64,000 bases of DNA, from NCBI RefSeq assembly GCF_988243305.1, contig NZ_OZ547137.1; one strand, 5' to 3'. Positions 16,057-16,310 of the stretch are shown in pieces. The number at the start of each line of letters is the position of its first letter. The stretch's first letter is position 1. Under the pieces are notes generated by a model that saw nothing but the letters and a program-made list of their open reading frames with translations, made no database searches and was not told where the DNA came from. The stretch comes from a plasmid. The position numbers and the translations under genes are program-made.

Positions 16057-16231
16057 AACAGGATGACTAAAAATACTCGTTTTTCCCCCGAAGTCAGTCA
16101 TAGGGCGATTCGTATGGTTCTGGAAAGTCAGGGCGAATATGACTCACAATGGGCGGTAATTTGTTCCATTGCCCCAAAGATTGGCTGTACACCGGAGACT
16201 CTGCATGTCTGGGTACGCCAGCATGAGCGGG
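16057..16231 (+). pseudogene. IS629-like orfA 5-prime fragment (continuation after IS3 copy 2)
   Basis: [57 protein letters not shown], then diverges at ~16215. Confidence 0.75.
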
Positions 16232-16310
16232 ATCGAGTAGGAGGAGGGATAACTCCCGCCGTCCTCTCACACCACCGTACATGCGGCTCCGCATACGGCG
16301 GTTTATGTTA
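16232..16310 (-). other. group II intron 3-prime-terminal fragment (domain V/VI-like)
   Basis: cctctcacaccaccgtacatgcggctccgcatacggcggtt is homologous to the domain V region of the full intron (5251..5295). Confidence 0.5.

Follow-up and report, generated by a model that had tools for sequence, protein, structure and literature searches.

An 88-nucleotide remnant assigned to the 3' end of an E.c.I6-type group II intron, and its probable history in an IS629-like element on a pAA-type plasmid of enteroaggregative Escherichia coli

The question raised by this locus is what broke off the orfA gene of an IS629-like element in the middle of its coding sequence, in a region where several other insertion sequences are also truncated. 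The window, i.e., the whole stretch of 64,000 nucleotides analyzed here (contig NZ_OZ547137.1), belongs to a pAA-type virulence plasmid of enteroaggregative E. coli, in which the aatP gene occupies positions 13292-14455 on the minus strand. The RefSeq annotation of the equivalent stretch of pFORC69 contains an incomplete IS3-family transposase (described by PGAP as "IS3 family transposase, incomplete, missing C-terminus"), an incomplete hypothetical protein and a small "transposase", and no intron feature is present in it. A sequence-only reading of the window had placed a fragment of the 3' end of a group II intron at 16215..16310. A fragment of this kind is indeed present, as indicated by a match of 47.2 bits with the RF00029 model and by 85 identical bases out of 88 in a BLAST alignment, but its limits have to be shifted: the intron-derived stretch extends from 16232 to 16319, while positions 16215..16231 belong to the IS629-like orfA gene. 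To judge from its sequence, the stretch 16232..16319, read on the minus strand, is the 5'-truncated tail of an E.c.I6-type class C (IIC) group II intron. The features of the locus are listed in Table 1.

Table 1. Features recognized in and around the intron relic (positions are those of the window).
Feature	Position	Strand	Basis and remarks
IS629-like left inverted repeat and leader, split from orfA by IS3	14748..14798	+	Sequence tgaaccgtcccggaaatcctggagactaaactt...; colinear with pFORC69, where it runs straight into orfA
IS3 copy, 1258 bp, in the IS629-like leader, with a 3-bp AAC duplication	14799..16056	+	ORFs 14855-15163 and 15160-16026; not part of the relic, but illustrates the nesting of the locus
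IS629-like leader, first 56 codons of orfA (ATG at 16063) and one base	16057..16231	+	ORF translation MTKNTRFSPEV...VWVRQHERD; 3' exon of the intron on the minus strand
Intron relic, assigned to E.c.I6-type class C	16232..16319	-	Final 88 nt of the intron; RF00029, BLAST and fold
3' terminal AU of the intron	16233-16232	-	Within the relic
Domain VI, bulged branch-point A at 16238	16269-16234	-	RF00029, fold
Domain V, CGC triad	about 16303-16271	-	RF00029, fold
End of the intron protein, three last sense codons and stop (TTC CAG TGT TAA)	16319-16308	-	Within the relic
GAA overlap, common to the intron and IS66 tnpC	16317..16319		Alignment of the window, intact IS66 (L009) and E.c.I6 (L001)
IS66-family 3' end: last tnpC codons and terminal inverted repeat (...ggggcgcttac to 16429)	16320..16431	+	92% to 2638-2752 of intact IS66 (L009)
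Internal fragment of a different IS66-family tnpA, host of the previous IS66 insertion	16432..16646	+	78.6% to L001 5913-6127 (IS66-family "transposase")
Second short IS66 tnpC 3' piece, adjoining the SPATE (S6 peptidase) pseudogene	16662..16725	+	Direct repeat D2 with 16317-16374 (86%); 86% to L009 2992-3055
Decayed SPATE (S6 peptidase) gene	16662-18144

The RF00029 model (Intron_gpII, covering domains V and VI) matches the minus strand from 16303 to 16232 over its full length (model positions 1-77), above its gathering score of 40, with E-values of 3.7e-6 in the scan of all the Rfam models on the 64-kb window and 4.6e-8 in a local search. The covariance-model search for domain V, which had been proposed as a check on the sequence-only reading, thus gave a positive answer. 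The BLAST alignment with the full-length E.c.I6-type introns had an E-value of 2e-39. The structure looked for was a helix of approximately 34 nt carrying the catalytic triad and a 2-nt bulge (domain V), followed by a helix with a bulged A located 7-8 nt from an AY end (domain VI). The 88 nt of the relic fold at -38 kcal/mol (z = -3.7) with the helices of domains V and VI both present, the bulged A at 16238 lies 7 nt from the 3' end, and the intron terminates in ..GAU. The triad of domain V is CGC in the relic, AGC being that of most introns, and CGC is typical of IIC introns. The occurrence of CGC as a variant of the domain V triad is mentioned in PMC4424553. Only four codons of the ORF remain, and the relic is a fragment, not a functional mobile group II intron. 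No match with the D1-D4 models was found near 16.2-16.3 kb, either in the Rfam scan of the window or in the local search, and a match with SNORD107 at 16300-16380 (19.7 bits, E = 0.79) was regarded as noise. Nor was any 5' part of E.c.I6 found elsewhere in the window, the only other E.c.I6 sequence being a piece of domain VI of 34 nt at 24839-24872. We infer that the relic is non-functional and amounts to ordinary debris of a mobile element.

The relic corresponds to the last 88 of the approximately 1919 nt of the intron. It shows 96.6% identity (85/88) with the full-length E.c.I6-type copies L001, L002, and L006 and 93.2% identity (82/88) with the reference E.c.I6-1a of CFT073, which is itself 95-98% identical to the intron of the M18 type. 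When 5,426 complete E. coli genomes were searched, the intron part, taken as 16230-16319, gave a 96.7% match with the 3' end of full-length introns having an intact ltrA gene; carriers of such introns include the M18 chromosome (L001, 2170-4088) and a plasmid with an afa operon (L006, 1670-3588). According to the naming rule used in PMC3522654, the name E.c.I6 applies to introns showing more than 90% nucleotide similarity to the reference, and the relic falls within this range, with the value of 93.2% to E.c.I6-1a obtained on a comparison limited to 88 nt. E.c.I6-1a is a class C intron of 1807 bp (NC_004431, 4320108-4321914; PMC3522654, Tables S2 and S3) located between grpO and grpP in the selC island of CFT073 (Leclercq and Cordaux, 2012; PMC3522654). 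In that survey, E.c.I6 was recorded in the selC island only, in addition to one degraded fragment, and all the copies had a disrupted ORF (PMC3522654).

The parent-type protein (ltrA of L001, 462 aa) has the RVT_1 and GIIM domains and no endonuclease domain. The relic, which retains four codons, may be assigned to class C on the basis of these domains of the parent protein and of the listing in PMC3522654. It shares with E.c.I6 the 3' terminus ..CUACUCGAU, the CGC domain V, and, to judge from the rebuilt site, apparently the same kind of target, consisting of a hairpin, a few nucleotides, and TAT/C (here and below, the slash marks the junction). It differs from E.c.I6 in that the ribozyme core and the reverse transcriptase are missing, and in that the hairpin which received it lies in a coding region, antisense to the IS629-like orfA, and not in a terminator. 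E.c.I6-type introns with an intact ltrA of 462 aa are present in several E. coli chromosomes and plasmids. Since these copies with intact ltrA exist, whereas the 2012 survey had only disrupted ORFs, the E.c.I6-type intron may still be active in some strains.

The junction between the intron and its 3' exon is located at 16231/16232, and the relic, read on the minus strand, is antisense to orfA. In the E.c.I6 copies with four different 3' flanks (L001, L002, L006, and L005/L008), the intron ends in ..CCUCCUACUCGAU and is followed by C, exactly as in the relic; in the L007 copy, the terminal nucleotide is also that of the relic, but the next base is G instead of C. The minus-strand junction of the relic reads ..CTACTCGAT/CCCGCTCATGCTGG.. 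(intron/exon), and the 3' exon of the window, in this reading, is the antisense of the IS629-like orfA (..CCCGCTCATGCTGGCGTACCCAGAC..); on the orfA strand, ..GAGCGGG is followed by the intron-derived ATCGAGTAGGAGG.. The flanks expected from the sequence-only reading are thus those found: the IS629-like orfA ends at 16231 and the 3' end of an IS66-family element begins at 16317 or 16320, depending on whether the overlap listed in Table 1 is included.

The other half of the insertion site was found at another locus. In the full-length copy L002, the 5' exon corresponds, in antisense, to the more downstream portion of an orfA of this type and ends in ..CACCGCCTCCGGTAT/GTGCG (..ccggtat), the passage from the exon to the start of the intron reading ..CACCGCCTCCGGTAT/GTGCGCC.. 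When positions 16063-16231 of the window were joined to the reverse complement of the L002 5' exon, an uninterrupted orfA was obtained (MTKNTRFSPEV...). Thousands of E. coli records contain an intact IS3-family transposase gene with which this rebuilt site of 244 nt aligns in one piece, with 100% coverage and up to 97.5% identity. The insertion point falls between ..CCGGTAT and CCCGCTC.., 169 nt into orfA and in the antisense orientation, no base having been lost or gained. The target site was rebuilt here using L002, the 3' exon of which is an IS110-family fragment and not IS629, and the 5' exon is absent from the window. The fact that a single insertion point is defined by the two half-sites without any change of base is what the insertion of an intron leaves behind, and the sequence comparison identifies the left boundary as a true intron insertion junction.

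The right boundary is of another kind. The homology with the intron stops after ..GTTAACACTGGAA, which corresponds to position ~1832 of the 1919 nt and leaves four codons of the protein; the next 112 nt come from the interior of an IS66 tnpC and run to the terminal repeat of that element. The parental sequences around this junction are ..GCGCGAA/GTGATC.. in the intact IS66 and ..ACTGGAA/CTGCC.. in the intron. Since the break lies inside both elements and not at the end of an IS, it can be explained by illegitimate recombination or deletion rather than by transposition. The right break therefore points to a later deletion or illegitimate recombination, the order of the events and the mechanism being deduced from the arrangement, and the 3-nt overlap being too short to prove any one mechanism of recombination. 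An inversion instead of a deletion was considered and rejected, given the absence of 5' E.c.I6 sequence elsewhere in the window and the different identity level of the other IS66 piece of the L009 type (964-2125), described below.

The surroundings of the relic consist largely of pieces of insertion sequences. The IS66-family tnpA fragment at 16432-16646, which overlaps with an ORF at 16454-16690, is 85.5% identical to positions 28908-29128 of the window. On the minus strand, positions 964-2125 hold the 5' 1164 nt of an IS66, broken inside tnpC and 97.6% identical to the intact copy in L009. This piece and that located at 16320-16431 are probably not the two halves of one element, because their identities differ (97.6% vs. 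92%). Three copies of IS3 present in the window (7569-8826, 14799-16056, and 46849-48107) are 100% identical, and the middle one is absent from pFORC69; these identical copies point to recent bursts of transposition within the plasmid. The 34-nt piece at 24839-24872 (minus strand) constitutes a second E.c.I6-type relic, restricted to domain VI and 94% identical to E.c.I6 1886-1919. Its 3' exon is apparently the antisense of the 3' part of an IS2-like orfA, and its truncated side faces the left end of an IS200-type element, where the STnc490 model (RF01405) matches positions 24893-25017 (plus strand, 140 bits). The ALIL pseudoknot, a frameshift element of the IS3 family, was matched at 25916-26014 (plus strand, 81 bits). 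Features of both kinds are to be expected in insertion sequences, and they further show how densely this plasmid is populated by IS elements.

Class C introns insert after the stem-loops of terminators, where the structure outweighs the sequence (PMC4424553, PMC7306698). Five independent E.c.I6-type sites were compared, namely after a terD-family gene, between grpO and grpP, near afa, after bcsB, and in the IS629-like orfA. In these sites, the hairpin ends 3-13 nt before the insertion, and the 5' exon ends in TAT or TGT, the next base being C in most cases. At the rebuilt IS629-like site, a hairpin of 9 bp ends 9 nt upstream of the insertion point, which reads ..GGTAT/C. This hairpin is not followed by a T-run and makes a weaker target than the terminator sites: its DNA fold (-7.7 kcal/mol) has a z-score of -1.9 and is equaled by 13 of 200 shuffled sequences, as compared with z-scores of -5.2 to -7.5 for the hairpins of the other E.c.I6-type sites. 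A simple motif search of domain I of the parent yielded no clear EBS1 complementary to G-N-T-A-T; the relic itself has no domain I. The IS629-like site is consistent with the insertion habits of class C introns, although this agreement falls short of proof, and the apparent use by a class C intron of a hairpin inside the coding region of an IS3-family element is a mildly new observation.

Some E.c.I6 copies that are widespread on chromosomes and plasmids (L002 2163-4088; L011, L012) have an IS629-like 5' exon of 75 nt and a 3' exon belonging to an IS110-family pseudogene; upstream of the L002 copy, there is also an odd run of short repeats of the gtgatcga/gcgaat type. This mixture of IS629-like and IS110 exons suggests a recombination between two intron copies located in different insertion sequences. 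It is conceivable, but rather doubtful at this stage, that the antisense hairpin in the IS629-like orfA (codons ..GGGDGGLTT..) might be a recurrent homing site of E.c.I6 other than a terminator, and that the loci with IS629-like and IS110 exons might be the products of recombination between intron copies. If the first of these proposals were true, this class C intron would be a regular parasite of IS3-family elements, beyond terminators; if the second were true, introns would provide a portable homology by which IS debris is reshuffled.

The segment 16056-16700 (645 bp) is 99.5-100% identical to the corresponding segments of p55989, of the O104:H4 pAA plasmids, and of their relatives. Both junctions occur together in 36 PLSDB plasmids and in 45 complete E. 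coli genomes, and all those inspected are of the pAA type. A scan of metagenomes for the exact junction gave eight contigs, all of which show the same truncation and the same join to IS66, while no match was obtained among species-representative genomes. The second relic at 24839-24872 co-occurs with the main one in five of these eight contigs. A longer intron at the junction was searched for using a chimeric query composed of 400 nt of intron and 169 nt of IS629-like exon, to which no complete E. coli genome responded at a coverage of at least 80%. The ancestral occupied site would read ..CACCGCCTCCGGTAT/GTGCGCC.. and ..CTACTCGAT/CCCGCTCATGCTGG.., these two junctions being ~1.9 kb apart, and no full-length E.c.I6 with IS629-like sequence on both sides was found in the scans of complete E. 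coli genomes, species-representative genomes, and metagenomes. The fact that the junctions are identical and that all the copies are truncated suggests that the relic goes back to a single event inherited in the pAA lineage. As compared with E.c.I6, the copy in the window has GUUA instead of GUGA in the loop of domain VI, and a G-to-U change breaks one pair of this domain. It also reads ACATA, where some metagenome copies read ACATG like E.c.I6, and this change is recent because some of the copies have kept ACATG. Such changes look like the drift expected of a dead sequence.

Starting from what can be observed directly (what the fragment is, where its two junctions lie, how the target site is rebuilt, and in which plasmids and genomes the junctions occur), the best explanation, to which we would give a probability of about 85%, is that an E.c.I6 intron inserted into the IS629-like orfA, that a deletion occurred later, and that the remainder was passively inherited as a dead relic. 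A full-length intron of ~1.92 kb would have reverse-spliced into the strand antisense to orfA, 9 nt past the 9-bp hairpin. An illegitimate recombination or deletion would then have joined position ~1832 of the intron to the interior of an IS66-family tnpC across GAA, with the loss of the first ~1.83 kb of the intron (domains I-IV and nearly all the reverse transcriptase ORF) and of the rest of the IS629-like element. The scar would subsequently have been passed on in the pAA lineage, accumulating point changes, two to three in number and including the one that disrupts a pair in domain VI, and in the present plasmid IS3 would later have landed in the IS629-like leader. The suggestion made in the sequence-only reading, that the fragment is a relic of intron invasion followed by deletion, gains support from the exactness of the left junction, from the break into IS66 tnpC, and from the absence of any 5' intron part in the window.

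The main competitor of this history is a truncation at the time of insertion, i.e., an abortive retrohoming in which reverse transcription of the inserted intron RNA stopped ~88 nt from its 3' end, leaving a short cDNA that was joined to DNA. Copies truncated at the 5' end are a known outcome for retroelements copying from their 3' end, the overlap of 3 nt is of the kind often left by template switches and end-joining, and no full-length copy was found at this site in any of the collections searched. This mechanism nevertheless predicts that the tail should be joined to the IS629-like 5' exon (..CCGGTAT), whereas it is joined to the interior of IS66 tnpC; moreover, the rest of the IS629-like element is absent, and an IS66 terminal repeat and a second IS66 fragment follow. 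In another version, the reverse transcriptase would have switched template to an antisense IS66 RNA at the GAA overlap, but such an RNA would have to run across two nested elements, and a second join would be left unexplained. In a neighborhood which is a patchwork of truncated elements, an ordinary deletion is the simpler explanation, and a truncation at insertion seems unlikely. Even less probable is that the hairpins of domains V and VI have been co-opted, for example to terminate transcription or to stabilize RNA in the interval separating the aat/aap virulence genes from the IS debris. The stability of the fold and the conservation of the relic (98-100% in all the pAA plasmids examined) could be taken to favor a role of this kind; yet the flanking IS debris is conserved to the same extent over the 645-bp segment, so that the conservation reflects recent common descent, a stable fold is the normal look of domains V and VI, no T-run follows the hairpins, a pair of domain VI has been lost through a substitution, and the copies are not identical to one another.

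Two other introns had to be considered as the source of the fragment. The resident intron of the window (5217..7081, minus strand, ~1865 nt) encodes a reverse transcriptase/maturase of 450 aa without endonuclease domain (ORF 5313-6665) and is inserted 3 nt downstream of an intrinsic terminator; the D1-D4 models match its positions 6711-6997, and its domains V and VI (5217-5289) score 38.7 bits, below the RF00029 gathering score. Like the relic, it is a group II intron on the minus strand, and the common orientation pointed out in the sequence-only reading is correct. The homology of about 80 bp with its domain V region (5251..5295) claimed in the same reading is real but shorter, as it covers 42-43 nt, at 88% identity, and comprises domain V and the start of domain VI; likewise, the pairwise alignment recommended as a check does align the two sequences, but with 76% identity over the wider alignment, the 88% being confined to these 42-43 nt. 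That the relic might be a diverged partial duplicate of the resident intron, moved by recombination, is hardly credible: the shared strand and the 42-43 nt at 88% would speak for it, but nothing aligns outside domain V, which is conserved in all group II introns and gives a similarity of 88% at the family level, whereas E.c.I6 matches at 96.6% over all the 88 nt, including the end of the ORF and domain VI. In the ORF, the nucleotide identity between the resident intron and E.c.I6 is only about 69%, and the former can be regarded from this comparison as a different, class-C-like species. The resident intron was rejected as the parent on account of its 76% overall identity, the restriction of the 88% to 43 nt, and this difference in the ORF.

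The second candidate, E.c.I4, is a class A intron of 2271 bp, abundant in strain 55989, for which specific insertion positions are reported in IS629, IS911, ISEc16, and ISEc31 (PMC3522654). It thus has in common with the relic the family of the host element (IS3 family, IS629-like), its homing into IS629 is documented in PMC3522654, and the closest IS629-like relatives of the present element do carry E.c.I4. The relic might accordingly be seen as a remnant of this intron, which homes into IS3-family transposases of the IS629/IS911 type, but the chance of this is minimal: the 55989 copy (L004) shows no significant similarity to the relic or to the E.c.I6-type intron, its protein is of class A, and it lies on the sense strand about 740 nt into the IS, as against the antisense strand and 169 nt into orfA in the case of the relic. 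E.c.I4 was rejected as the parent on sequence, site, and strand. The insertion of an E.c.I6 intron followed by a deletion is therefore retained as the explanation of the locus.

The relic is an already known kind of object, namely a truncated copy of a named intron in IS debris on a virulence plasmid. The fragments catalogued as E.c.I4-tr1 to tr4, E.c.I3-tr1 to tr4, and E.c.I6-tr1 (PMC3522654, Table S2) are likewise truncated and inactive, occur in IS-rich virulence plasmids and islands, and are inherited with their host. The present relic differs from them in its absence from that catalogue: since matches shorter than 100 bp were dropped and the 55989 plasmid was left out, a relic of 88 bp on such plasmids was not listed. 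In scans for introns, it is relevant that the Rfam gathering score catches this dead 88-nt tail (47.2 bits) and passes over the corresponding part of the intact resident intron (domains V and VI, 38.7 bits). For the pAA plasmids of enteroaggregative E. coli, the relic is an unannotated scar which explains why their IS629-like orfA stops after codon 56, and its two unique junctions provide a precise lineage marker for this family of plasmids, the O104:H4 outbreak plasmid being one of its members.
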